Counted from the first letter of the stretch, positions 28,482 through 39,440 are shown. The stretch is 64,000 nucleotides of DNA from Verrucomicrobiota bacterium (GCA_020831625.1 JAFIGD010000001.1:139296-203295), one strand, 5' to 3'. Program-made: numbers and translations. Notes: a model not told the origin generated them from the sequence alone.

Positions 28482-30254
28482 TCAGCTTTGAAGGTCTTTC
28501 ATCTGCCGGAACGCGCTGTCGGCGCGGGCGGCAAGTTCATCATACGTTCCGCTTTCCACAATCCGCCCCTTTTCCATCACCACCACCCGGTCCGCGTTGC
28601 GGATGGTCGACAACCGGTGCGCCACAATCAGCGTGGTCCGGCCCCGCACCAGACGCTCAATCGCCTCCTGCACCAGTTTTTCCGACATCACATCCAGCGC
28701 CGAGGTCGGTTCATCCAGCACAATCACCCGCGGATCCCGCACCAGCGCCCGCGCGATCGCCAGCCGCTGCCGCTGGCCGCCCGAAAGCCGCGCCCCGCCC
28801 TCCCCCACCCGCGTGTTCAACCCCTCCGGCAGCCGCTCCACAAACTCCAGCACATTCGCCGCCACCAGAATCTCCTCAAACCGGGCCTCATCCACATCCT
28901 CCATCCCGAACAGAATATTCTCCCGGATCGTCCCCTCAAACAGCACACTCTCCTGCGGCACCACCGAAATAAAGCGCCGCCAGCTCCGCATGTCGATCGA
29001 CTCCATGTCCCGGCCGTCCAACAAAACGCTGCCGGATGTCGGCCGCCTGAAGCCGATCGTCAACCGCAGCAAGGTCGATTTCCCGCCCCCGCTCGGCCCC
29101 ACCACCGCCACACATTCCCCCGCCCGGATCGCAAAATTCACCGCATCCAGCGCCGGGTCGTCCGCGGGACTGTAGCGATACGTCACCTGCCGGTATTCAA
29201 TGTCGCCCCGCACCCCGTCCACTCCGTCCTTGCCCTGGTTCAACTCCAAATCCGGACACTCCAGCACCTCGCCGATGGACCGCACCGACTCCATGCCCTT
29301 GGCCATCTGCGGATACAGGTTCAACATCATCGTGAAGTTCATCATCATCTGATGAAACAGCGCCATAAACAACACCACCTCGCCGGTCGTGATCCACCCC
29401 CTCCGCGCAAAAAAAACGCCCGCGAACAGCATCCCCAGACTTGCGAACTGGAACGTCGCCCAGCTCGACGACTGAAACAGCGCGTTGATTTTATCCAGAC
29501 GGCGGCCCGAAGAATGCACCCGGTCAATCTGACTCTCCACCCGCACCGTCGCCTTCTCCTCAATCCCGTGCGCGCGGCTCACCGGGATCATATCAATCAT
29601 CTGACTCACCTCGGAATTCATCATCTCCAGGCTTTGCCGGAAATCCTGGTTTTCCCTGCGGATCCGGTTTTTAAACACATGCGTCAACCCCAGCACCATC
29701 GGCACCATAATCATATACACCAGCAACATCCAGGGCTGACGCGCCAGCGTGATCACCACCATTGCCGCCAGGGTGCTCAACGCCATCACCCCCGTTTCTC
29801 CGAACTGGTTCGCCACCGTCTGCACCTGCTCCACGTCCCGCAGCACCTTCGCCTGCAAACGGCCCGACTCCACCGTGTCGTGATACGGAATCGACAACTG
29901 CTGCAGCCGCGTCACCAGCGCCTGCCGCAGCCGACCCTCCAGCCGCCGGGTCAAACCGCTGAGCTGTGAAACATAATAGGTATGAAACGGCACATTTCCG
30001 CACAGCAGCAGCATCTGCGCCGCCACCGCGAACCCCATCCCCCGGACCGTCACCCCGCTCTCCCCGCTCAGCCAGTCGATCACCATCGCCGTCACCAGCG
30101 GCATTCCCCAGGCCGGGGACTGCTTGATCACAAACACCGTCAGCATCCAAAGCGCCCGCAGCGGCGAACAATCCGTCCACCGCCACAGCGTGCGCAGCGG
30201 GCTGCTGCTCTGATAAGACCATTCAAGCGGTGTAAACGGACGGGATGACGACAT
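28482..30254 (-). CDS. ABC exporter, fused permease plus ATPase (MsbA/MdlB type)
   Basis: 590 aa with six N-terminal TM segments. Walker A reads GPSGGGKST, the signature reads LSGGQRQRLAIARAL, and Walker B reads VIVLDEPTSALD. Confidence 0.85.
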   Translation of the reverse strand: MSSSRPFTPLEWSYQSSSPLRTLWRWTDCSPLRALWMLTVFVIKQSPAWGMPLVTAMVIDWLSGESGVTVRGMGFAVAAQMLLLCGNVPFHTYYVSQLSGLTRRLEGRLRQALVTRLQQLSIPYHDTVESGRLQAKVLRDVEQVQTVANQFGETGVMALSTLAAMVVITLARQPWMLLVYMIMVPMVLGLTHVFKNRIRRENQDFRQSLEMMNSEVSQMIDMIPVSRAHGIEEKATVRVESQIDRVHSSGRRLDKINALFQSSSWATFQFASLGMLFAGVFFARRGWITTGEVVLFMALFHQMMMNFTMMLNLYPQMAKGMESVRSIGEVLECPDLELNQGKDGVDGVRGDIEYRQVTYRYSPADDPALDAVNFAIRAGECVAVVGPSGGGKSTLLRLTIGFRRPTSGSVLLDGRDMESIDMRSWRRFISVVPQESVLFEGTIRENILFGMEDVDEARFEEILVAANVLEFVERLPEGLNTRVGEGGARLSGGQRQRLAIARALVRDPRVIVLDEPTSALDVMSEKLVQEAIERLVRGRTTLIVAHRLSTIRNADRVVVMEKGRIVESGTYDELAARADSAFRQMKDLQS

Positions 30255-30257
30255 GGA

Positions 30258-32936
30258 TTATCCCCCAATCTCCCGCTCCAAAACCTCCCACTCCTTGTTC
30301 GTCACCATCACAAACCCGCAGGTTCCCCCGCTCAGCTCCGCCCAAAGCCCGCCGATCATGCGGTCATCCTCCGCCGAGGCCATGCGGTCGCCGCCCTTGT
30401 ATTCCACCACCAGAATCCGCCCGTCCCTCAACTTGCAGACAAAATCGGGAAAAAAGCGGCCGTTGCCCTTCTGAAGAAAAAAGGAGCACCCCGGCCTGCC
30501 GACCAGATTGCGCACCCAGAATTCAACCCCGTCCTGACGATCCAGCCAACAGGCGCATTGGTATTCCTCTTTGGAATCAAACGCGCCGATGCGCGGATAG
30601 TAATGCTTGTCGAAACAATAATCCCCCCATTCCCCCCGGTCGTCCCGTGTGGGCGCATAGGCGTCCGGATGAAACTCAAAGCGGTACTCCGAGCCCACCC
30701 GGACCCGCTCATCCCGCCCCTCCCCGAACAAAAACTCCCCGCAGGCGTTCTGCGCCGCCGCCGCGCGCAGAGCGTGGACCCTCGCCTCCAGCAGATTCCG
30801 CAACTGAAACTTCTGCCGGTTCGCCTTCGCCAAATCATATCCGTCCTGAGACAACAGATCCCCCAGCCAGGCCGCCACAAAGGCCCGCTTGCTGGCGTGC
30901 GTGATGCCCGGATCATGCACCTGCTTGCAGAACCAGGCCGCCAGCCTGGCATCCGTCCAGTTTTCCGGCGTGTATGCAAGCCCCAGATCCCGGCTCAATT
31001 CCCGGCTGAACGAAGTCTTCACCCGCCCCGCATCCTCATCCACATCAATCAGCCCCGCCTCCTTCACCCTGGAGGTCAACGCCAGCGCCGAAAGCTGCGC
31101 TTCGGTCACATACGCCTCCGCCAAAGGCAGCTCCCACGGATAATCCACCGCCTCCGGCTCATCAAACAGCCGCAACTCCCCGTCGATCAACACCTCCATC
31201 TGAGGAACAAAAAACGCCTTCCCCCGCTCCGAAGGCGTGTGGAAAATCTGCACCGCCTCCGTGCGGCTGGCCACGCCGGCCCGGCTGATCGCCTCCCGGG
31301 TCGCATCCATCACCGCCCCCCGCGAAACCTCCTCCGTCTCCGCCTCCGTCAGCGGCGCATTCAGCACCAGCACCTTTTCTTTTTTGTTCCACACCACCTT
31401 CCGTTTCGTCTGCGCGGACAGCCCCGACACATCCAGCTCCTCGCCCAGCTTCACCTCCACCGGCGTGATGCGGATGCGGCCTTCGCCCCGCTTGAAATCC
31501 AGTTTCGCCTGCTCCGGGGACCGCGCCGAAACAAACTCCGACGCCTCCTGCCGGTTGAACCCCGAACTCTGCACCAGACATTCCCGCAACATCTCCGCCG
31601 TCTCCCCGAAATCCCGCGACACCACATACGCGTACGACCGGTTCAACGCCTCATGTTTCCGCTTCACCGCCTGCGGCTGACGCAGAATCCGCCCCAGCAA
31701 CTGCTCCACCGCCGTCGCGCTCTTCACCCCCGCCATGCTCACCAGCACATACGCGAACGAACAATCCCACCCCTCCGCCAGCGCCTTCTGCGTGATCACA
31801 TACTTCACCGGACACCGCTCCGAAAAAATTCCGCCCGGATACGCCGACTCCAGCGCCTCCAGCTCCCGCTCACTGCCCGTGGCCACCGCGATCTCCGCCT
31901 CCGGCACATTGTGATTCTCCATCAGCTCCCGCTTCACCCACTCGTAATCCCGCGTCTCTTTGTTTTTCGACTTCGGCTCCGACTGAATCAGCACCAGCGG
32001 ACGCAGATACGGAGCCCCCTCCCGATGCTCCCGCTCCGCCAGCACATTCAATTGATCCCGCTGATCCAAGGCCAGCGCCAGACAACGCTTATCCTCCGGC
32101 ACCGTCTCCAACTGAATCGGCAGCTTGATCATCTCCTCCCGCTTCAACTCCACCGCCGAAACCGAATGCAGCACATTGCTCGGCGTCCTCTCCATGTCCG
32201 GCGTCGCCGTCAGCTCCATGATCCCCAACGGCTTAAACTTCGCCAGCGTGTCAAAGGCCAGTTCCGTGCGGCTGTTGTGCGCCTCGTCCACAATCACAAA
32301 CGGACGCCGGAGCCGCAGCACATTCGCCAGCGAATACGGAACCGTGCCCCCATCCGCGTCTCTCAGCAACCCCGCCCGCTGCGAGTCCGTCAGCCCGTCA
32401 AACAAATGCTGCAGAGCCCCGTTGCTCTCATACACCTTGCGGATCTCCTCATTCTCCACCTGGAACGCCTGCCGCGTCCCCACAATCACCACCGTCCCCG
32501 TCTCCAGCATGGAGCGGTTCAACGCCTTCGCGTCATCCAAATCGATCACCGTCACCGGACCCGCCTCCCGCAGCGCCGCGTGATACGGATGATCCACACC
32601 GCACAAGCCAGCCAGCGTCTGCTCCCGAATCGCCTTCGACGGCACCAGCCACAAAATCACACTGTGCTCCGTATGCAGCAGCCGCTGATTCACCAGCGCC
32701 ACACTCTTCGCCGCCAAAAACGTCTTCCCGCCCCCCGTCGGCACCCGCAGACAAAAATACGGCATATCCTCTTCAAACCCGCGCAGCGGCGTGAACGCCG
32801 ACTTCTGCCCCCAAAGCGCCTTCGTGGTTTCCTGAAACGCATAATCCGCGTTCCCCATCCGCTGGCAGGTCCGGAAATACAGCTCAATGCTGCTGAGCGC
32901 ACTCGCTTGATATTCTTTTGGCGTGAAGGTGGGCAT
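30258..32936 (-). CDS. res: Type III restriction endonuclease Res subunit (SF2 helicase plus C-terminal PD-(D/E)xK nuclease)
   Basis: Start chosen at the ATG at 32936 (MPTFTPKEYQ); the ORF-track start at 32990 is TTG and lies in an AT-rich spacer. Motif I reads VPTGGGKTFLA, motif II reads FVIVDEAHNS, and the C-terminus reads PDFVCKLRDGRILVVEYKG. Confidence 0.8.
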   Translation of the reverse strand: MPTFTPKEYQASALSSIELYFRTCQRMGNADYAFQETTKALWGQKSAFTPLRGFEEDMPYFCLRVPTGGGKTFLAAKSVALVNQRLLHTEHSVILWLVPSKAIREQTLAGLCGVDHPYHAALREAGPVTVIDLDDAKALNRSMLETGTVVIVGTRQAFQVENEEIRKVYESNGALQHLFDGLTDSQRAGLLRDADGGTVPYSLANVLRLRRPFVIVDEAHNSRTELAFDTLAKFKPLGIMELTATPDMERTPSNVLHSVSAVELKREEMIKLPIQLETVPEDKRCLALALDQRDQLNVLAEREHREGAPYLRPLVLIQSEPKSKNKETRDYEWVKRELMENHNVPEAEIAVATGSERELEALESAYPGGIFSERCPVKYVITQKALAEGWDCSFAYVLVSMAGVKSATAVEQLLGRILRQPQAVKRKHEALNRSYAYVVSRDFGETAEMLRECLVQSSGFNRQEASEFVSARSPEQAKLDFKRGEGRIRITPVEVKLGEELDVSGLSAQTKRKVVWNKKEKVLVLNAPLTEAETEEVSRGAVMDATREAISRAGVASRTEAVQIFHTPSERGKAFFVPQMEVLIDGELRLFDEPEAVDYPWELPLAEAYVTEAQLSALALTSRVKEAGLIDVDEDAGRVKTSFSRELSRDLGLAYTPENWTDARLAAWFCKQVHDPGITHASKRAFVAAWLGDLLSQDGYDLAKANRQKFQLRNLLEARVHALRAAAAQNACGEFLFGEGRDERVRVGSEYRFEFHPDAYAPTRDDRGEWGDYCFDKHYYPRIGAFDSKEEYQCACWLDRQDGVEFWVRNLVGRPGCSFFLQKGNGRFFPDFVCKLRDGRILVVEYKGGDRMASAEDDRMIGGLWAELSGGTCGFVMVTNKEWEVLEREIGG

Positions 32937-33149
32937 GTTTTTTCTAGAATTGTGGTTTTGTCTTAAAATGAAATGCTTTTCCCTTAGCAAAGGTCATCTT
33001 TCCCCTTAGATACTGTAAATCATTCATTACAAGCAAATTGCAACACTTTATCCCTTTTACCTTAAAATGACCTCTTTTGTTCTTAGCACTCTGAAACATC
33101 ACACTTAAACGGCATTAACCTCTTTAAAATAACAACTTATGTAATATTT

Positions 33150-35093
33150 TTACTTTTTCCTTACAGACAGGGTGTTTTTTCTTATGTTCAGTTTGGGCTT
33201 TATTGCAGCCCTGTAGGCTTGATCCACCCGATTAGGCTTGTCCGGATATTTCAGGAGCAACAGCCCATGCCGAACCATTGATGTTAAGAAACGTTGCCGC
33301 AAACCATCCGGATTTCGGTTTAACAGGGCAGCAATTTGGGATCTGGTCAACCAGTGTTCACTGCAAATACTTAAAATAATCCCTTCCATCTCCTTTGTTT
33401 CCAGTCGCTTGCAGGATCTGGAAACCTCCGCTAAATTATAGAGTTGCTCCAGTGTGCCTCCGTCCAAGTCTGGAAAAACAGTGGCAAGTTTGTTTATGAC
33501 CTCCTCTTGTATACGTACGGAGTGATCATCCTTACCTACGGAGTGATCGCCCTTACGTACGGAGTGATCGCCCTTACGTACGGAGTGATCGCCCTTATGT
33601 ACGGAGTGAATATCCTTGTGTGAGAAGTCAGTAACAGGCGTCAGTTTATACCTCGTCCATCTTCCCTGTCCTTGCTGTTGCAGAAACCCCTCACCTGTAA
33701 GCTTTTGTAGGAGCTGGGTCACATCAGATGCATGCAGCCGGGTAATTTGCCGCATGCGGGCGTTATCTACCCCCCCTTCTATATCCGCAGTCACCAAAAC
33801 TTCGACTTCTTGTTTCGTGCAACCGTCAAAGCGTTTGCCAAATTGCTTTTGCAGGCGGGATAAGGATTCCTCCGGTATGAGACTGACCATCGGCAATACC
33901 CACTCCACCCGATCAGGCTGTACAGTCTCCCGTACAGTTGGCGAGCGCCAGTGTTGTGATTCCCAACCACGGCGGATTTTATCAACACCGGATCCTGCCC
34001 GTTCCGCCAGACCCAACTGGGTAAACATTTTCTGCAAGGACTTATTACGGCACTCACTGACATTTCCACGCAGTAATTGATCCAATGAAATAAGCAACAT
34101 GCCAGGATTGGAGAAAACAAAACGATCCCGGTATTTCTCTATAACAATGCCGCCCTGTCCCTGATAATCGGCATGAATCAAGGCATTGACCAAAGCTTCA
34201 CGAATTGCCTCATGGACAACGCTCTCCCCTTTGCGAAAAAGATTCGCATCCAGTTGAAAAGGCAATTTAATGTCATCCGAAAGCCGCTGAACCACCCGCA
34301 AGTAAAACTGAAAAAGGTTCGGAGGCCATGTCCCGTCCATCATCAGCCTGTCCGTGTAACGGACATCAGGGTCATCGGAGAATTTTTCGCGGTAATCAAC
34401 ATGATAATCAGGAAGAGCCTCCGTTATCGTCTCCTCGCGCCCAAACATAAGAAGCCCGGCGATCGTCAGTCCTTCCTTCTCTGTTTTTCGATCCTGACGC
34501 CAACCGCCCAACTTTGATAACAGCCCTATATCATCTTCACTCAACCAGGGATGCGTTGGCTTATGTGAACCAAATCGCTGCCGGAACTGCTGTAAACTTT
34601 CCCGGTCAAGATCCTTGAGACCGAATCCTTCCAGAATTCGACTGTCTGCAGGTGCCTCCGCCCGGTCTGAAAGCATTCGCCCCACTTCCTGTTCCGTACA
34701 GTGATAGTCGCCTTCGTAATTCCTACGGTAGGTTCCTGTGAGCGGGTTTTGATCCAAATACACCGGACGTTGCTGTCGGGAGGCCCTGGGAATCCGAATC
34801 GCAAGAATATTCTTATCCTCAATCCGAACTTCCTCAACATCCACGTCCGTAAGCAGATTCAGGCTGACTTTGGACCGGTTATTTATCGTGTCCCAAAAAG
34901 ATTTCTTAAGTTTGGAAGTATTCTCAACCCCACATACATTTCCATTATCTTCAACACCCAACAGAACCACTCCACCATTGGAGTTTGCCAACGCACTGTA
35001 ACTCTCCCATAAACTTTTAGGCACACCGCCTTTGGCAGCCTTGAATTCCAAATCTTCACATTCCGTCCAATCAAGGCGACTGAGAAGGTCCAT
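33150..35093 (-). CDS. Schlafen-like ATP-binding protein, COG2865 type (AlbA_2 plus HATPase_c_4 plus C-terminal wHTH), inserted between mod and res
   Basis: Start chosen at the ATG at 35093 (MDLLSRLDWTECEDLEFKAAKGG). The HATPase_c_4 signature reads REALVNALIHADYQGQGGIVIEKYRDRFVFSNPG. It contains a 7-aa tandem repeat linker. It has lower G+C than res and the flanking mod segments. Confidence 0.7.
   Translation of the reverse strand: MDLLSRLDWTECEDLEFKAAKGGVPKSLWESYSALANSNGGVVLLGVEDNGNVCGVENTSKLKKSFWDTINNRSKVSLNLLTDVDVEEVRIEDKNILAIRIPRASRQQRPVYLDQNPLTGTYRRNYEGDYHCTEQEVGRMLSDRAEAPADSRILEGFGLKDLDRESLQQFRQRFGSHKPTHPWLSEDDIGLLSKLGGWRQDRKTEKEGLTIAGLLMFGREETITEALPDYHVDYREKFSDDPDVRYTDRLMMDGTWPPNLFQFYLRVVQRLSDDIKLPFQLDANLFRKGESVVHEAIREALVNALIHADYQGQGGIVIEKYRDRFVFSNPGMLLISLDQLLRGNVSECRNKSLQKMFTQLGLAERAGSGVDKIRRGWESQHWRSPTVRETVQPDRVEWVLPMVSLIPEESLSRLQKQFGKRFDGCTKQEVEVLVTADIEGGVDNARMRQITRLHASDVTQLLQKLTGEGFLQQQGQGRWTRYKLTPVTDFSHKDIHSVHKGDHSVRKGDHSVRKGDHSVGKDDHSVRIQEEVINKLATVFPDLDGGTLEQLYNLAEVSRSCKRLETKEMEGIILSICSEHWLTRSQIAALLNRNPDGLRQRFLTSMVRHGLLLLKYPDKPNRVDQAYRAAIKPKLNIRKNTLSVRKK
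33513..33617 (-). repeat. 21-bp tandem repeat, 5 copies, in frame within COG2865 gene 1; encodes (KGDHSVR)n
   Basis: Units ACGTACGGAGTGATCATCCTT / ACCTACGGAGTGATCGCCCTT x3 / ATGTACGGAGTGAATATCCTT were counted at 33513-33617. Confidence 0.85.
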
Positions 35094-35124
35094 TGGATTA
35101 AAATGAGTAGGCTTCGGCATCAGA

Positions 35125-36720
35125 CTACACCTCAATCGCATAAGGGGTTTGCTTGAACACGATTTGCTCCCGCTGCAGGGCGGAGGCCCCCAGGCGGCTG
35201 GCGGCCGCATATATCACCTTCGGCCCTTCATGAACCGGCAGCCCGTCCAGCACCGGACGCGTGAGAATATTGCCGCCCTGCGGACGCCGGTCACCCAGAA
35301 TCCCGTTGAACAGCAGATAAATCCCCCTTCCCTCATGCACCCCCAGCAACGGACTCGTCCCGTCGCCCGTGTACCCCAGACCCGTCTCCGAAAACCAGAC
35401 AAAATCCGCCAACTGCGCAAAGGTCACATCCTCCCGGATATCCCCGAACTCGTTGAACAGCGGCTCCCCGCTCAGACGGCAAAACTGAAATCCCCCGCCC
35501 AGCCCCGCCACCACCTTGCCCTTCGCGTCCGCATACCCCGCCGACACCCGCCGCACCCGCTCCGCCGTGATGTCCCGGGCAATGTTCTCCTCCATCTCCA
35601 CCAGAATGAATTTCCGCGTCCCCCCGTCCTCCGCATTCTGCTTCAACACCGCGTGCCCCGTCGTCCCGCTGCCGGCAAAACTATCCAAAATCATATCACC
35701 TTTGTCAGTCGCAATTTGAATAATGCGTTGAAGCAATCTAGTTGGTTTGGGGGTGTCAAAAGCTGTTTGTGTACCGAAAATCGCTCTAATCTCTTTCTTT
35801 GCCTCATCTGTATGACCTACTTCGTCATGCGGCCACCAAGTCCAAGGTACAAAACCCTCAACTTCTGACAAAAAGCGAATAATGCTTGGTTGTGAGTCGC
35901 CCTTCTTTCCGAAATAAATTCTACCCTCTGTCAGTAATTTTAGAAATTCACTTTCGATGGTTGACCAACAACGTCCTTCTGGCGGAATGATTTTTTTACC
36001 AGAAGGCGTTGTGATCTCGTACATTTGATTAGGCCTATAACCCTGTGCTGTCATGGGAATCCCACGCCATCGGCCTTTTGGATCATTATTTGGATTTTTG
36101 TAAACCTTGGCCTGTTTCTCGGTTAAAGGAACGAGATTCCTTGATTCTTGGAATTTTTTGGGGTTTGGAGCGTACACAAGCAAGTATTCATGTGCATCGC
36201 CGATGGAACCCCGATTTTCTCTAGAATAACGCTTTTGCCATGTATTACATGCAACGAATGAGGATAGCCCAAAGATTTCATCCATTAACGAGCGCAAGTT
36301 ATGGATCTCGGAATCATCCATTGAGATCCAAATAGATCCATCCGGCCGCAAAAACTGCTTCAGCAGCACCAGTCGCGGATACATCATGCAAAGCCACTTG
36401 TCATGACGGCAAAGATCCTCGGCCTCCTTGCCGACGGCTTCCCCCAGCCACTTTTTGATTTCCGGCGCGTTCGAGTTGTCGTTGTACACCCATCCCTCAT
36501 TCCCGGTGTTGTAGGGCGGATCGATGTAGATGCACTTCACCCGGCCCGCGTACTTCGGCAGCAGCGCCTTCAGCGCGTGCAGATTGTCCCCCTGCACAAT
36601 CAGGTTCCCGTCACGCCCCCCGCCCGCCGACAGCCCCGCATCCGGCTCCAGCAGCCGAAACGGCACCTCCTTGTGATGCCGAATCACCGCATCCTTCCCA
36701 ATCCAGTCCAGCGTCGGCAT
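35125..36720 (-). CDS. mod: Type III R-M Mod subunit (beta-class N6-adenine DNA methyltransferase) with a low-GC central target-recognition region
   Basis: Start at the ATG at 36720 (MPTLDWIGKD); the ORF-track start at 36738 is TTG. Motif IV reads IYIDPPYN (about aa 64-71) and motif I reads DSFAGSGTT (about aa 346-354). Nucleotides about 35690-36340 between them are visibly AT-rich. Confidence 0.85.
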   Translation of the reverse strand: MPTLDWIGKDAVIRHHKEVPFRLLEPDAGLSAGGGRDGNLIVQGDNLHALKALLPKYAGRVKCIYIDPPYNTGNEGWVYNDNSNAPEIKKWLGEAVGKEAEDLCRHDKWLCMMYPRLVLLKQFLRPDGSIWISMDDSEIHNLRSLMDEIFGLSSFVACNTWQKRYSRENRGSIGDAHEYLLVYAPNPKKFQESRNLVPLTEKQAKVYKNPNNDPKGRWRGIPMTAQGYRPNQMYEITTPSGKKIIPPEGRCWSTIESEFLKLLTEGRIYFGKKGDSQPSIIRFLSEVEGFVPWTWWPHDEVGHTDEAKKEIRAIFGTQTAFDTPKPTRLLQRIIQIATDKGDMILDSFAGSGTTGHAVLKQNAEDGGTRKFILVEMEENIARDITAERVRRVSAGYADAKGKVVAGLGGGFQFCRLSGEPLFNEFGDIREDVTFAQLADFVWFSETGLGYTGDGTSPLLGVHEGRGIYLLFNGILGDRRPQGGNILTRPVLDGLPVHEGPKVIYAAASRLGASALQREQIVFKQTPYAIEV

Positions 36721-36852
36721 CAGCAAGCCCCCCGGCAAACAGGAACCACCACAACATCACACCAAAAACGCATCAGATCACTCATTCCCCACTTCCTACC
36801 ACGCCCCCCGCCACCGGTCCAACCCCATTTTCAGATCACTCCGGGAAAAATG
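36660..36852. repeat. Copy A of an approximately 190-bp direct duplication covering the mod 5' end, start codon and upstream region
   Basis: Aligns, with substitutions and small indels, to 38847-39033. Both contain ...aatgccgaatcaccgcatc...cgtcggcatcag(c/t)aagccccccgg...aaaaacgcatca...ccacgccccc...ggtccaacc(c/t)cattttc...ccgggaaaaatg. Confidence 0.8.
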
Positions 36853-37372
36853 AGCCTGACTTCATTGTCACCCCTCATCCTCCGCACTTCCGTCATACAA
36901 AACCCGGCCGCTCAACTTGGAAACCATGATCAAACGGGAACTGCGAAGCATTGTACCGTCTTTTCCGTCATTCCAAGGCGAGAAAACGAACCACGATGGC
37001 TCAGAAGGCATATTATAGAGGCATATTTTTTCCGATAATGTACTCATGAGGGCTGGTGGAAGAGTGTAAACTCATTTTTATTCGCGGGTGTTTTGACAAA
37101 ACTGAATCATCCCCCTGCTGAAGTCAAGCAGGGAGGCACCTGAACAGAATCTAAAACACGCCGGAAAGGTATCAGGGTCCACCTGCCCGCAGTGCTGCGC
37201 ACAGCGTTGCAGGCGGGTCATCAGTGGTTTTCCCCAGTCGATCCGGTCGATCCCGGTAATCCCGTCAAAAATGCGCAGGACAGGCTTTGCTCCCTTCGCT
37301 CTCTTTGTTCTCTTTATCCTCTTCTGTAAAAATGATGAGATTTGCAGGTTCATCAGGTGAAAGGCCGCTTAA

Positions 37373-37431
37373 CTTGTTCAATTATTTTTCTTGTTCAATT
37401 ATTTTGAACAATGTATGATTCATGAACAATG
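37373..37431 (+). promoter_or_regulatory. Operator-like array of TTGTTCA / TGAACAA half-sites immediately upstream of, and overlapping, the start codon of CDS 37429
   Basis: TTGTTCAATTATTTT occurs twice (37375, 37392). There is a perfect inverted repeat TGTTCAA-ttatt-TTGAACA (37392-37410). TGAACAATG occurs twice (37405, 37423), the second containing the ATG. Confidence 0.4.
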
Positions 37432-38433
37432 AAACCTGAACACCAGTGGATTGCCCTGCGAAATGCCCTCATCGAACTTCCGGGGGAACCGATCTCGATT
37501 GACGAGAATCATTCTATTTTCACCTATCCCTCGGGCAAGGAAGTTGAATGGCGGTTTGGGGAAAAGCTAAGCACCCCATTTGTGGAGGGTTTGCTGAAGC
37601 ATAAGAGCAAAAAACCCTTGCTGCTGTTCTCACCTTACATCTCTCCCACCTTCGCGGAGCGGCTTCAGCGTAACGGGGTCTTTTTTGTGGATGAAACCGG
37701 GAATGCCTATCTTGAGTGGCCGGGGTATTATTTGTTTATCTCGCGGGACGTGCCAAAGAACTTGCGCCCCGGGAACAGTCAAAGAAAAGCGGGTAAGGAT
37801 TTTTCCCCCAGCGCACTCAAGCTGATCTATCTCTTTCTTACCGATACGAATAAGGGTGTCGGCGCGCGGGTGAATCATACCGTCCGACAATTAAATGCCG
37901 TCACGGGTATTTCCACCGGATCCATCAGCAACACCATGGACAGCCTGAAGGCGCAAAATTTTCTCGAAGAACGGGAGCCGGGAGTGCGGCGACTGGCCCA
38001 ACGGGAAAAATTGTTCGAACGCTGGGTGGAGGACTACACCCGCAAACTTCGGCCCAAACTGGTGGTGGAACACTACCGGCTCCCGCATCCCGGCTGGGCA
38101 AGTGAGCTGGTGCATACGGATGGCCCTGGCAAGTGGGGAGGCGAGGTGGCCGGGTCCAGACTCACCGGACATCTGGTGCCGGAAACCGTCACCCTTTACA
38201 CGGAAAATTTGCCGGCCAACTTTATTGTGAAAAATGACCTGCGCAAAGACCCGGCGGGGCGGGTGGAGATTCTGAGGCCCTTTACACCAATGGACCTGAC
38301 GGATCCAGCAGAGGCCTGTGTCCATCCTCTGCTCGTATATAGCGATCTCATGGCCTCCGAAATCGACCGCAACCTGGAAACCGCAAAACGGATTTATGAA
38401 AAATACCTTCGGCCTCTGGCAACATCCGATTGA
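37429..38433 (+). CDS. Low-GC hypothetical protein with a putative winged-helix segment (tentatively AbiEi-like antitoxin/regulator)
   Basis: 334 aa at about 50% G+C by eye. A candidate wHTH reads VRQLNAVTGISTGSISNTMDSLKAQNFLEE. It is preceded by the inverted-repeat operator. The family call is speculative. Confidence 0.4.
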   Translation: MKPEHQWIALRNALIELPGEPISIDENHSIFTYPSGKEVEWRFGEKLSTPFVEGLLKHKSKKPLLLFSPYISPTFAERLQRNGVFFVDETGNAYLEWPGYYLFISRDVPKNLRPGNSQRKAGKDFSPSALKLIYLFLTDTNKGVGARVNHTVRQLNAVTGISTGSISNTMDSLKAQNFLEEREPGVRRLAQREKLFERWVEDYTRKLRPKLVVEHYRLPHPGWASELVHTDGPGKWGGEVAGSRLTGHLVPETVTLYTENLPANFIVKNDLRKDPAGRVEILRPFTPMDLTDPAEACVHPLLVYSDLMASEIDRNLETAKRIYEKYLRPLATSD

Positions 38434-38836
38434 GAAAATAGTTTCCCTGCCCATGTTGGTCGTCCTGAAAATTGTGGCCGTGATGGACAGGGAACACGCC
38501 CGCCATAAAAAAGACGGTACCGATATTGCCTTCATTCTTGAAAACTACCTCAACGCGGGCAACGGTTTGCGTTTATTGGAGGGACCGAATGCGGATTTGA
38601 TGGCAGCTTGCGGCAATGATCTGGATGCCGCCACTGCGCGACTGTTGGGACGGGACATGGCCACGGAAATGCACCCGGACACCAGAAACCGCATTCGCAC
38701 ATATCTCGAGGAACAGGTGAAGAGTAGTGGGCGTTGTCACTTGGTTCATGGACTGATGGCTTCGTCCCGCTTCCCGACCTTCCCTGTTGCACGGGCTTGT
38801 CTGGGCAATGTACTTGCAGGGATAGAAAACATATGA
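38396..38836 (+). CDS. Low-GC small protein overlapping the previous CDS; KDGTDIAFIL motif reminiscent of the C-terminal region of AbiEii-type nucleotidyltransferases (tentative; possibly a frameshifted remnant)
   Basis: The ATG at 38396 lies inside the 3' end of the upstream CDS in another frame. The ORF track extends it to a GTG at 38318. It reads LKIVAVMDREHARHKKDGTDIAFILENYL. It is too short to contain an NTase fold. Confidence 0.3.
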   Translation: MKNTFGLWQHPIEKIVSLPMLVVLKIVAVMDREHARHKKDGTDIAFILENYLNAGNGLRLLEGPNADLMAACGNDLDAATARLLGRDMATEMHPDTRNRIRTYLEEQVKSSGRCHLVHGLMASSRFPTFPVARACLGNVLAGIENI

Positions 38837-38846
38837 TGAAAACCAA

Positions 38847-39033
38847 AACAGAACCTGCTGATAATGCCGAATCACCGCATCTTTGCCAATCCAGCGTCGG
38901 CATCAGTAAGCCCCCCGGAAAACCAGGCCCAATCCACCATCACAGCAAAAACGCATCACATCTCTCATCCCCCACTCCCTGCCACGCCCCCGCCCCCGGT
39001 CCAACCTCATTTTCTAACGACACCGGGAAAAAT
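38847..39033. repeat. Copy B of the mod 5' duplication, including a degenerate MPTLDW start-codon fragment (38858-38903, minus strand)
   Basis: Minus-strand atgccgacgctggattggcaaagatgcggtgattcggcat matches the mod start with a small deletion. It also drives the spurious ORF 38550..38903. Confidence 0.8.
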
Positions 39034-39059
39034 GTTGCTCCTTGGTAACAATTGTTACC

Positions 39060-39440
39060 GATTTAAGGAGTCCAACCCCATTTCCTGATCACTCCGGGAA
39101 AAATGAGTCGTTCCGACGCTCGAAAAAGGACCGGCATGATTTTCCGAACGTCGGAACGTTGGACTGGACCATTTCAAGGCTCGGAGGCAAAGCGGAAAAG
39201 CATCAGTGTCCACCTTCCCGCAGTGCTACGCGCAGCGTTGCAGGCGGGTCAGTGTCATCAGTGGTTTTCCCTCACCATACCTAAATCCCTTCCGCCCAGG
39301 CACAGAGGATAGGTATCAGTGTTCATCAGTGTCATCAGTGGTTTTTCTCCACCGCACCTTGCCCCTCCACCCAAGCACGGCGGACAGGTAGATATCCGTG
39401 TCCATCCGTGTCCATCCGTGGTTCTATTCTTCCGTGCCCC
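39060..39440. repeat. Mosaic of short interspersed repeat families X, Y, Z and W in non-coding DNA downstream of the 128-aa ORF
   Basis: X element: ccaaccccatttcctgatcactccgggaaaaatgag (also at about 36815 and about 39000). Y element: palindromic hairpin gttccgacgctcg...cgtcggaac (39098-39148; also 46662-46710 and 61985-62035). Z element: cccgcagtgctacgcgcagcgttgcaggcgggtca...tcagtggttttcc (also about 37180-37235). W elements: two units of cacRgMggaYaggtatcagtg...atcagtggttttt, the same family as the 52745-53455 array. Confidence 0.8.

Follow-up and report, generated by a model that had tools for sequence, protein, structure and literature searches.

A Schlafen-type gene between mod and res of a Verrucomicrobiota Type III restriction-modification system as a candidate exchangeable accessory defense gene

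A restriction-modification (R-M) system of Type III whose genes mod and res are separated by a gene for a Schlafen-type protein was analyzed in a 64,000-nucleotide stretch of DNA from a Verrucomicrobiota bacterium (GCA_020831625.1 JAFIGD010000001.1:139296-203295), referred to here as the window. The genes are co-oriented, all on the minus strand, in the order mod, Schlafen gene, AT-rich spacer, res. The features of the locus, with lengths in amino acids (aa) or base pairs (bp), are the following.

35125..36720, minus strand: Type III mod (DNA methyltransferase), 531 aa, intact and full length (Pfam N6_N4_Mtase; PADLOC MTase_III)
35762..36313, minus strand: swapped target-recognition region of mod, G+C 0.43, between the DPPY and FxGxG motifs and without homology to the closest relatives (L085, L086, and L087, below)
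33150..35120, minus strand: COG2865-type long-form Schlafen gene, 656 aa, 1971 bp (Pfam SLFN_AlbA_2 and HATPase_c_4)
34698..35063, minus strand: Schlafen/AlbA_2 nuclease-like domain, residues 20-141 (Pfam PF04326, E=2.5e-17)
33924..34148, minus strand: predicted HATPase_c_4 (GHKL-like) domain, residues 325-399 (Pfam PF13749, E=3e-14)
33512..33609, minus strand: 21-bp in-frame tandem repeat, 4.7 copies, 93% matches (Tandem Repeats Finder; HSV(R/H)KGD heptads)
32956..33184, minus strand: six direct TAAGRMAAAA boxes in three pairs (motif matches, phasing, conservation)
32937..33149, minus strand: AT-rich spacer between the Schlafen gene and res, 213 bp, G+C 0.31 (composition)
30258..32936, minus strand: Type III res (helicase-nuclease subunit), 892 aa, intact and full length (Pfam ResIII; PADLOC REase_III)

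Both subunits of a Type III system were recognized with Pfam and PADLOC. The mod product matched Pfam N6_N4_Mtase (PF01555, E=4e-41) and PADLOC MTase_III (PDLC03644, E=6e-202; residues 1-530 of 542 profile positions), and the DPPY and FAGSG motifs are readable in its translation. The res product, with its length counted from the ATG that homologues use, matched Pfam ResIII (PF04851) and PADLOC REase_III (PDLC03650, E=3e-119; residues 4-878 of 898 profile positions). The typical Type III order, in which res follows mod immediately or overlaps it, was not found in the window locus: 2188 bp separate the mod stop from the res start (35124-32937), made up of the 1971-bp gene, whose ATG lies 4 nucleotides (nt) past the mod TAG, and the 213-bp spacer. 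The original prediction, made from the sequence alone, had described mod and res as split by a 1.9-kb COG2865 gene of lower G+C and an AT-rich spacer at 32937-33149, and these coordinates and features hold. The G+C content is 0.485 for the Schlafen gene (0.495 at third codon positions [GC3]) versus 0.620 for res (GC3 0.80), with 0.604 for the whole window. mod itself is a mosaic, with a G+C of 0.597 in its 5' part, 0.429 in its center (35762-36313), and 0.603 in its 3' part.

The region was compared by BLASTN with its closest res relatives, loci L085, L086, and L087, whose Res proteins are 87 to 89% identical to that of the window. Three homologous blocks with 83 to 88% nucleotide identity were found:

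36851-36314, minus strand: mod 5' part and leader
35844-35126, minus strand: mod 3' part
32992-30256, minus strand: res, 85% nucleotide identity

The homology stops exactly at the mod stop codon, restarts 0 to 56 nt before the res ATG, and stops again at the res stop codon. No nucleotide homology to these three loci was detected by BLASTN in two segments, the center of mod (approximately 36313-35762) and the whole slot between mod and res. Because the low-G+C center of mod lies between the DPPY and FxGxG motifs, it is the target-recognition domain (TRD), swapped relative to the relatives; the Mod proteins are 71 to 77% identical. The lower G+C of the slot gene and the mod TRD, together with their lack of nucleotide homology to the closest relatives, indicates that cassette import is real. 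Homologues of Res are up to 91% identical, with hundreds of Type III loci at 55% identity or more, and the genes flanking the R-M module differ from locus to locus in L085 to L087 and in other relatives. With homology that stops at its own stop codon and neighbors that differ, res is part of a transferable R-M unit; it had been described as native in appearance for its high G+C, which is correct as to composition but not as to its belonging to a module that can move. A scan of metagenomes with res returned two loci only, and a scan of viral contigs returned none. The homologues on plasmids, of Res as well as of the two Schlafen forms described below, are at most 46% identical and were rejected as a guide to locus history because they are too distant.

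Nine loci, the window included, with Res proteins 69 to 100% identical to that of the window, were taken as the subfamily; this sample is small, and its members are phylogenetically related. The slot contents are listed by Res identity.

Window: Res 100%; long Schlafen, 656 aa, 213 bp before res
L087: Res 89%; short Schlafen/HATPase_c_4/helix-turn-helix (HTH) protein, 489 aa, 240 bp before res
L086: Res 87%; 105-aa open reading frame (ORF) without family match, 6 bp before res
L085: Res 87%; no gene, 633 bp of repeats
L083: Res 76%; short Schlafen form, 244 bp before res
L045 (Pontiellaceae): Res 76%; long form, 635 aa, 22 bp before res
L088: Res 74%; short Schlafen form, 124 bp before res
L089 (Pontiella agarivorans): Res 71%; short Schlafen form, 243 bp before res
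L090 (Akkermansiaceae): Res 69%; DUF3800 protein, PADLOC candidate PDC-M04A, 446 bp before res

A called gene or ORF lies between mod and res in eight of the nine loci, and a Schlafen/HATPase_c_4 gene occupies the slot in six of them, four times as the 489-aa short form and twice as the long form. The DUF3800 protein in the slot of L090 (4676-5554 of that locus) matches the candidate defense family PDC-M04A with E=8e-19. Therefore, the slot accepts unrelated defense candidates as well. In outgroup loci L215 to L218, whose Res proteins are 60% identical, mod and res are 4 nt apart; gaps in all outgroups (L215 to L218, L213, and L214) are 1 to 15 nt, and plasmid homologues (Res 33 to 37% identical) have the two genes adjacent. 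Because mod and res are adjacent in the outgroups, the three-gene layout is derived, yet it is the usual state of the subfamily, with turnover of the cargo.

These comparisons bear out the earlier view that the layout is noncanonical. The proposal that an insertion uncoupled mod from res was right in that the layout is derived and the cassette imported, but the insertion is not a one-off, and uncoupling as an accident of the window genome is contradicted. The AT-rich spacer and its boxes are common to four relatives, and thus any uncoupling would be a trait of the subfamily. Comparison with syntenic loci, which the original prediction had proposed as a check, showed the three-gene arrangement in relatives too, but with a G+C that is nonuniform there as well, the slot gene again lying below res. 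That prediction had missed the swapped TRD of mod, the ordered repeats of the spacer, and the place of res within a transferable module.

The long and short Schlafen forms are distantly related, with 28% identity over 107 residues (BLASTP). The long-form proteins of the window and L045 are 61% identical. The nearest neighbors of the window protein, at 68 to 69% identity, are in a Type III-like locus, in Type I loci, and in one locus without recognized R-M genes, and the L045 protein is 85% identical to the product of a gene on a short, 3.9-kb contig from Kiritimatiellales (L040) that has no match to mod or res. Because each long-form gene is closer to genes of other contexts (69% and 85%) than the two are to one another, they are most simply explained as separate captures into the same slot.

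The spacer before res is not featureless. Three pairs of boxes start, on the minus strand, at 33184 and 33163, 33085 and 33064, and 32986 and 32965, with 21 bp between starts inside a pair and 99 bp from pair to pair. The 64-kb window contains six exact matches to TAAGRNAAAA (0.3 expected window-wide), and five of them lie within 229 bp here, on the coding strand, so that the array consists of five exact boxes and one degenerate copy. Between the end of the last box and the res ATG there are 19 nt. At the other end of the array, the first pair and the 3' end of the Schlafen ORF overlap, and the C-terminal tail of the protein (..NIRKNTLSVRKK) is encoded by array DNA. No box was found upstream of mod or of the Schlafen gene.

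The same layout, within 1 to 3 bp, follows the short-form genes of L087, L089, and L083, and L088 has two pairs. Among the nine loci the array is absent from L045, L085, L086, and L090. It therefore accompanies five of the six Schlafen-bearing loci and none of the three without Schlafen. Across the 28 boxes compared, the TAAG and A-run positions are almost invariant, and box columns are 74% identical between loci versus 41% for non-box spacer columns. Because the first two units of L089 are nearly identical, the array is a tandem repeat of a unit of approximately 99 bp. We read the array as a putative protein-binding cis element of an arrangement of short Schlafen, spacer, and res that was kept when the long form replaced the short form in the window lineage. 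The obvious candidate for binding it is the slot protein's HTH. In a comparison of four short-form proteins only, the difference between GGA and GAC boxes showed no visible covariation with the recognition helix.

Other readings of the spacer were considered. RNAalifold on four spacers gave no conserved pairs and Rfam gave no match at E≤1 across 32700-37600, and an RNA structure was rejected on these two results. The boxes were also rejected as recognition sites of Mod, on the ground that the TRDs of mod differ between loci while the boxes are the same. An RNA motif of the CsrA or Shine-Dalgarno type is unlikely, in that half of the boxes lack GGA. More than 120 matches to the paired-box pattern in AT-rich viral contigs were judged to be chance.

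The long-form family extends well beyond this subfamily. There are more than 3000 homologues, the best being 60 to 69% identical to the window protein over full length, and 60 to 70% identity is retained across Verrucomicrobiota, Desulfobacterota, Gammaproteobacteria, Chlamydiota, and others. The gene context was surveyed in 80 loci, with one genome per species. In 28 of these, hsdR follows on the same strand, with gaps of at most 58 nt in 24; likewise, 24 of the 28 have no other called gene between the long form and hsdR. Wherever the contig reaches, hsdM and hsdS lie upstream of the long form in these Type I loci. In Geothermobacter (L003) the long form separates the methyltransferase gene from the restriction gene in a second Type III family, in L029 it lies between DUF1156_MTase and PLD_Helicase genes, and in L063 it directly follows a PglX/Type IIG methyltransferase gene, where the contig ends. 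Five Type I loci (L005, L016, L023, L041, and L053) carry two Schlafen/HATPase_c_4 genes in one operon. All five have a long form of approximately 620 aa before hsdR; the other gene, after hsdM, encodes approximately 489 aa in four of them and 626 aa in L023.

The window protein has the hallmarks of a prokaryotic Schlafen (pSlfn), namely the AlbA_2 domain and the Ex4(E/D)xK motif. Its AlbA_2 domain gave hidden Markov model and profile alignments to 2KYY, SLFN13, SLFN14, and SLFN5. The motif reads E20-CEDL-E25-F-K27, with E20, E25, and K27 invariant in an alignment of 22 long-form members. In a profile search these residues align with the SES..IEFK segment of Slfn13, the glutamates lying opposite E205 and E210. 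Short-form relatives keep E20, E25, K27, and D58, with D58 invariant; we take this position to be equivalent to Slfn13 D248, the third acid of the Schlafen triad. E57, next to it, is nearly invariant (at least 90% conserved) in the long form. The Ex4(E/D)xK motif is the one that defines the Schlafen active site (PMC13056530). Nuclease activity of the long-form Schlafen is plausible from this conservation.

The remainder of the protein fits the "HisKinase-HTH" architecture of prokaryotic Schlafens, in which a GHKL-like domain is followed by an HTH. The HATPase_c_4 domain aligns to residues 300-399 of 3LMM. The short form has a C-terminal ArsR/MarR-type HTH (HTH_5/HTH_24); for the long form, no Pfam HTH match was significant. 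An AlphaFold2 model of the long form has segments at residues 415-495 and 540-640, mostly with a predicted local distance difference test (pLDDT) score of 65 to 87, that gave MarR/ArsR-type Foldseek matches. Foldseek matched the model best to the COG2865 protein 3LMM, 2KYY, SLFN13/5/14, the tRNase domain of SAMD9, and winged helices of the MarR/ArsR type; given the model's low confidence, these matches serve as domain-level support only. NCBIfam has no model for the protein. The 21-bp in-frame repeat falls between the two winged-helix regions. Its (D/H)SVHKxx heptads are present in every family member, in approximately 2 to 12 copies among orthologues, and form a hypervariable linker. The repeat unit contains GTAAGG and its period equals the 21-bp spacing of the spacer boxes, which may be coincidence.

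The reading that we favor, to which we assign as a whole a probability of roughly 55%, is that the Schlafen gene is an exchangeable accessory defense gene in a transferable Type III module, next to an array that regulates res in cis. The mod-res junction of this Type III subfamily, from the Planctomycetes-Verrucomicrobia-Chlamydiae group, would have become a slot for such exchangeable genes. The slot of the window holds a long-form Schlafen imported from a lower-G+C source, which probably displaced a short-form gene whose downstream spacer stayed. The gap of 4 nt suggests that the Schlafen gene is read from the mod transcript, and the three units of approximately 99 bp, each with two boxes, may form a cis-regulatory region that sets res expression. 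By analogy with tRNA-cleaving Schlafens and with PrrC of Type Ic systems, the protein would most likely be an RNA-targeting effector of the second line. The ATPase-like and DNA-binding domains would gate its nuclease, which would be tied to the activity or failure of the neighboring restriction enzyme, with the protein acting either as a PrrC-type guardian or as a sensor of restriction products. Functional cross-talk with the R subunit is pointed to because the long form lies upstream of this subunit in four kinds of ATP-dependent R-M-like systems. For accessory toxin genes in R-M systems of Types I and III, "repeated toxin displacement" has been described (PMC3506569), and the turnover of cassettes in the slot fits this pattern as well as the R-M association reported previously (PMC13462974).

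Several observations weigh against this reading. Approximately 45 of the 80 surveyed loci have no recognized R-M neighbor, many of these long forms lying among housekeeping genes (notably in one Chlamydiota clade), and the long-form protein therefore needs no R-M partner. Two HisKinase-type Schlafens expressed alone in Escherichia coli gave no defense (PMC13056530). The third acidic residue of the triad, at position 58, varies among D, N, K, and S in the long form, although the window protein has D58. The GHKL motifs are noncanonical, and the AlphaFold2 model is poor (pLDDT 58.7 and predicted TM score 0.28, with the GHKL region below 50). No sigma-70-like promoter was detected on the coding strand in the spacer, and the promoter and terminator scan did not exceed shuffled expectation. 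The array is not found with long-form genes in Type I loci or in L045, and because it does not accompany the long form elsewhere, its link to the window Schlafen protein is uncertain.

The main rival is that the Schlafen/HATPase_c_4/winged-helix protein is a DNA-binding regulator resembling the controller (C) proteins of other R-M systems. Its winged HTH would bind the array and gate or delay res, and the Schlafen domain would bind rather than cleave nucleic acid. Regulation of R-M by the COG2865 gene had also been suggested by the original prediction; it may still apply, and takes a concrete form with the conserved boxes that precede res. An ordered array of direct repeats immediately upstream of res, conserved in five loci and tracking the presence of Schlafen genes, argues for this possibility, as do the clear HTH of the short form and the MarR/ArsR folds matched by the long-form model. 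The spacer without a conserved RNA structure or Rfam family likewise favors a protein-binding DNA element. Winged-helix proteins that act on direct repeats approximately 21 to 22 bp apart have precedent in plasmid iteron-Rep systems. However, the long forms that abut the R gene in Type I loci and in L045 do so without an array, many family members have no R-M neighbor, and covariation between boxes and HTH was not visible in the four sequences. A strict Ex4ExK motif and 60 to 70% identity over 620 residues exceed the needs of a repressor, and the window array may be a relic of the displaced short-form gene. We regard this rival as possible but less likely. Controller and effector roles could both be true together.

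C proteins, found mostly in Type II systems, are HTH proteins of approximately 80 to 100 aa whose targets are inverted C-boxes that precede their own gene. The window resembles them in having an HTH gene in the operon and repeated boxes upstream of the restriction gene, and by this likeness boxes and HTH gene could delay restriction relative to methylation. It differs in its 656-aa protein, which has domains resembling those of enzymes, and in its boxes, which are direct repeats placed downstream of the Schlafen gene and upstream of res; the small controller and the preceding inverted boxes of a C-protein system were not found at the locus. A broader proposal would combine the two roles in one protein. 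GHKL-HTH Schlafens would be dedicated partners of ATP-dependent restriction enzymes, placed upstream of R for coexpression, with restriction activity or its inhibition licensing the RNase; in this Type III subfamily they would also bind the TAAGRMAAAA array gating res, and so act as controller and guardian. We consider so much in one protein doubtful.

A further alternative is that the Schlafen is an autonomous sensor-effector for which R-M operons are mere landing sites and vehicles of transfer, following defense-island logic and with no cross-talk. The many stand-alone copies of the long form agree with this, as does the other defense candidate (PDC-M04A) in the same slot of L090, and a known defense gene is present within 10 kb of 69.6% of bacterial Schlafen genes (PMC13056530). 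However, the placement is very specific, being on the same strand and immediately upstream of the helicase-nuclease subunit, with gaps usually of at most 58 nt, in four system types. The lack of defense by HisKinase-type Schlafens alone also speaks against autonomy, and we think this alternative improbable. A neutral or selfish insertion that has no link to restriction and cut res off from the mod promoter is suggested by the lower G+C and GC3 of the insert, the absence of nucleotide homology in the slot, the slot of L085 that holds repeats and no gene, and the canonical adjacency of the outgroups, but is unlikely because the arrangement recurs (Schlafen-type genes in six of nine slots, at least two classes, at least two separate long-form captures, and the same family at the corresponding place in Type I systems, in a further Type III family, and in one other R-M-like system) and because the genes are intact, with mod and res both full length and the Schlafen gene tightly coupled to mod and bearing all family-invariant residues.

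The effector role that we favor can be set beside known systems. "HisKinase" or "HisKinase-HTH" is the commonest architecture among bacterial Schlafens (PMC13056530), and Schlafen proteins with ATPase and DNA-binding domains (cluster 7) are "tightly associated" with R-M (PMC13462974). Like the window protein, both groups have an AlbA_2 domain with Ex4ExK followed by GHKL-like and HTH domains and are found beside R-M genes. In both papers the R-M association is at the level of the gene neighborhood and the architecture is uncharacterized, whereas the window adds a defined mod-res slot, the box array, and a long form that is very conserved and has a hypervariable heptad linker. Cash (CRISPR-associated Schlafen) and other bacterial Schlafens cleave tRNA and take part in phage defense (PMC13462974, PMC13056530). 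The window protein shares with Cash the type of effector nuclease and the conserved catalytic acidic motif. Cash, however, is gated by cA4 through a Csx15 sensor domain in type III CRISPR loci (PMC13462974), whereas the window protein has GHKL-like and winged-helix domains and lies in an R-M operon. The best sequence and structure matches are DIP2311 of Corynebacterium diphtheriae (PDB 3LMM) and the nuclear magnetic resonance domain 2KYY. DIP2311 has the same AlbA_2, HATPase_c_4, and winged HTH architecture; the two are structural-genomics entries without assigned function and are 15 to 25% identical to the window protein.

PrrC is the guardian of the Type Ic enzyme EcoprrI (PMC12707154). As with PrrC, a putative tRNA/RNA-targeting accessory gene lies inside an ATP-dependent R-M operon, in the mod-res slot of the window and between hsdS and hsdR in 28 other loci. 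This likeness suggests a backup abortive response tied to the restriction enzyme. PrrC is built differently, from an ABC-ATPase and a distinct anticodon-nuclease domain, and has no Schlafen, GHKL, or winged HTH domains; conversely, the window Schlafen gave no Pfam or PADLOC match to PrrC-type domains (ABC-ATPase N-domain, anticodon-nuclease C-domain). The silencing of PrrC by EcoprrI and its activation by T4 Stp are experimental, whereas the window Schlafen is known from sequence.

The association of this Schlafen architecture with R-M was already published, at the neighborhood level, in two 2026 papers (PMC13056530, PMC13462974). Four features appear to be new: a definite slot between mod and res, in a Type III subfamily, whose cassettes turn over; captures that were independent; a position directly upstream of R subunits; and an array of boxes in phase. 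Approximately half of all prokaryotic Schlafens have a GHKL-like domain, and these have no demonstrated function. For them a loose association is sharpened to a precise anatomy, namely a fixed slot upstream of the helicase-nuclease subunit, phased boxes, and repeated independent capture that covers two Schlafen classes and another defense candidate. If the coupling is functional, it would be the second example, after PrrC, of an RNA-targeting backup wired to a restriction enzyme and the first for Type III systems, and it could explain the inactivity of these Schlafens alone. Without functional coupling, the locus would still illustrate cleanly how cassettes turn over within a mobile R-M module.

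The neighborhood of the module contains three further ORFs:

28482-30254, minus strand: ABC-exporter ORF past res, first ATG at 30254 (Pfam ABC_membrane)
37429..38433, plus strand: divergent AbiEi_2-family gene upstream of mod (Pfam AbiEi_2, E=3e-29)
38318-38836, plus strand: 172-aa ORF after the AbiEi_2 gene

The exporter had been said to abut res at 3 nt. Its first ATG does lie 3 nt past the res stop, but the ABC_membrane match begins only at residue 50, and because of this the true start, and with it the gap and any read-through from res, is uncertain. The AbiEi_2 gene is 81% identical to a gene at the same position relative to mod in L086, where it is followed by a 209-aa gene; 87% nucleotide identity runs into the start of that region. 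Because the AbiEi_2 gene and the next ORF are shared in part with L086, the R-M module is placed in a small defense island that has a possible AbiE-like pair. Upstream of the AbiEi_2 start, by 24 to 56 nt, a 17-bp direct repeat (CTTGTTCAATTATTTTT; 37373-37405; 1.9 copies, 100% matches) carries an internal TTGTTCAA/TTGAACAA palindrome and looks like a putative operator for the AbiEi_2 regulator.

In truncated form, the leader and 5' end of mod occur a second time at 38843-39034 (and at 39070-39107 and 39193-39271), with 81% identity to 36655-36852. The ORF of this copy starts with MPTLDW, as mod does (from 38903 downwards), and then diverges. It probably remains from an earlier copy of the R-M system or from a rearrangement that brought the AbiEi segment. 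At the edge of the island (39249-39423) there is a short repeated element that reads ..HGWTRI.. in one frame and is tandemly duplicated. Related copies fill the otherwise empty slot of L085 (7368-8000), and the element may be a repeat of these Verrucomicrobia that resembles miniature inverted-repeat transposable elements.

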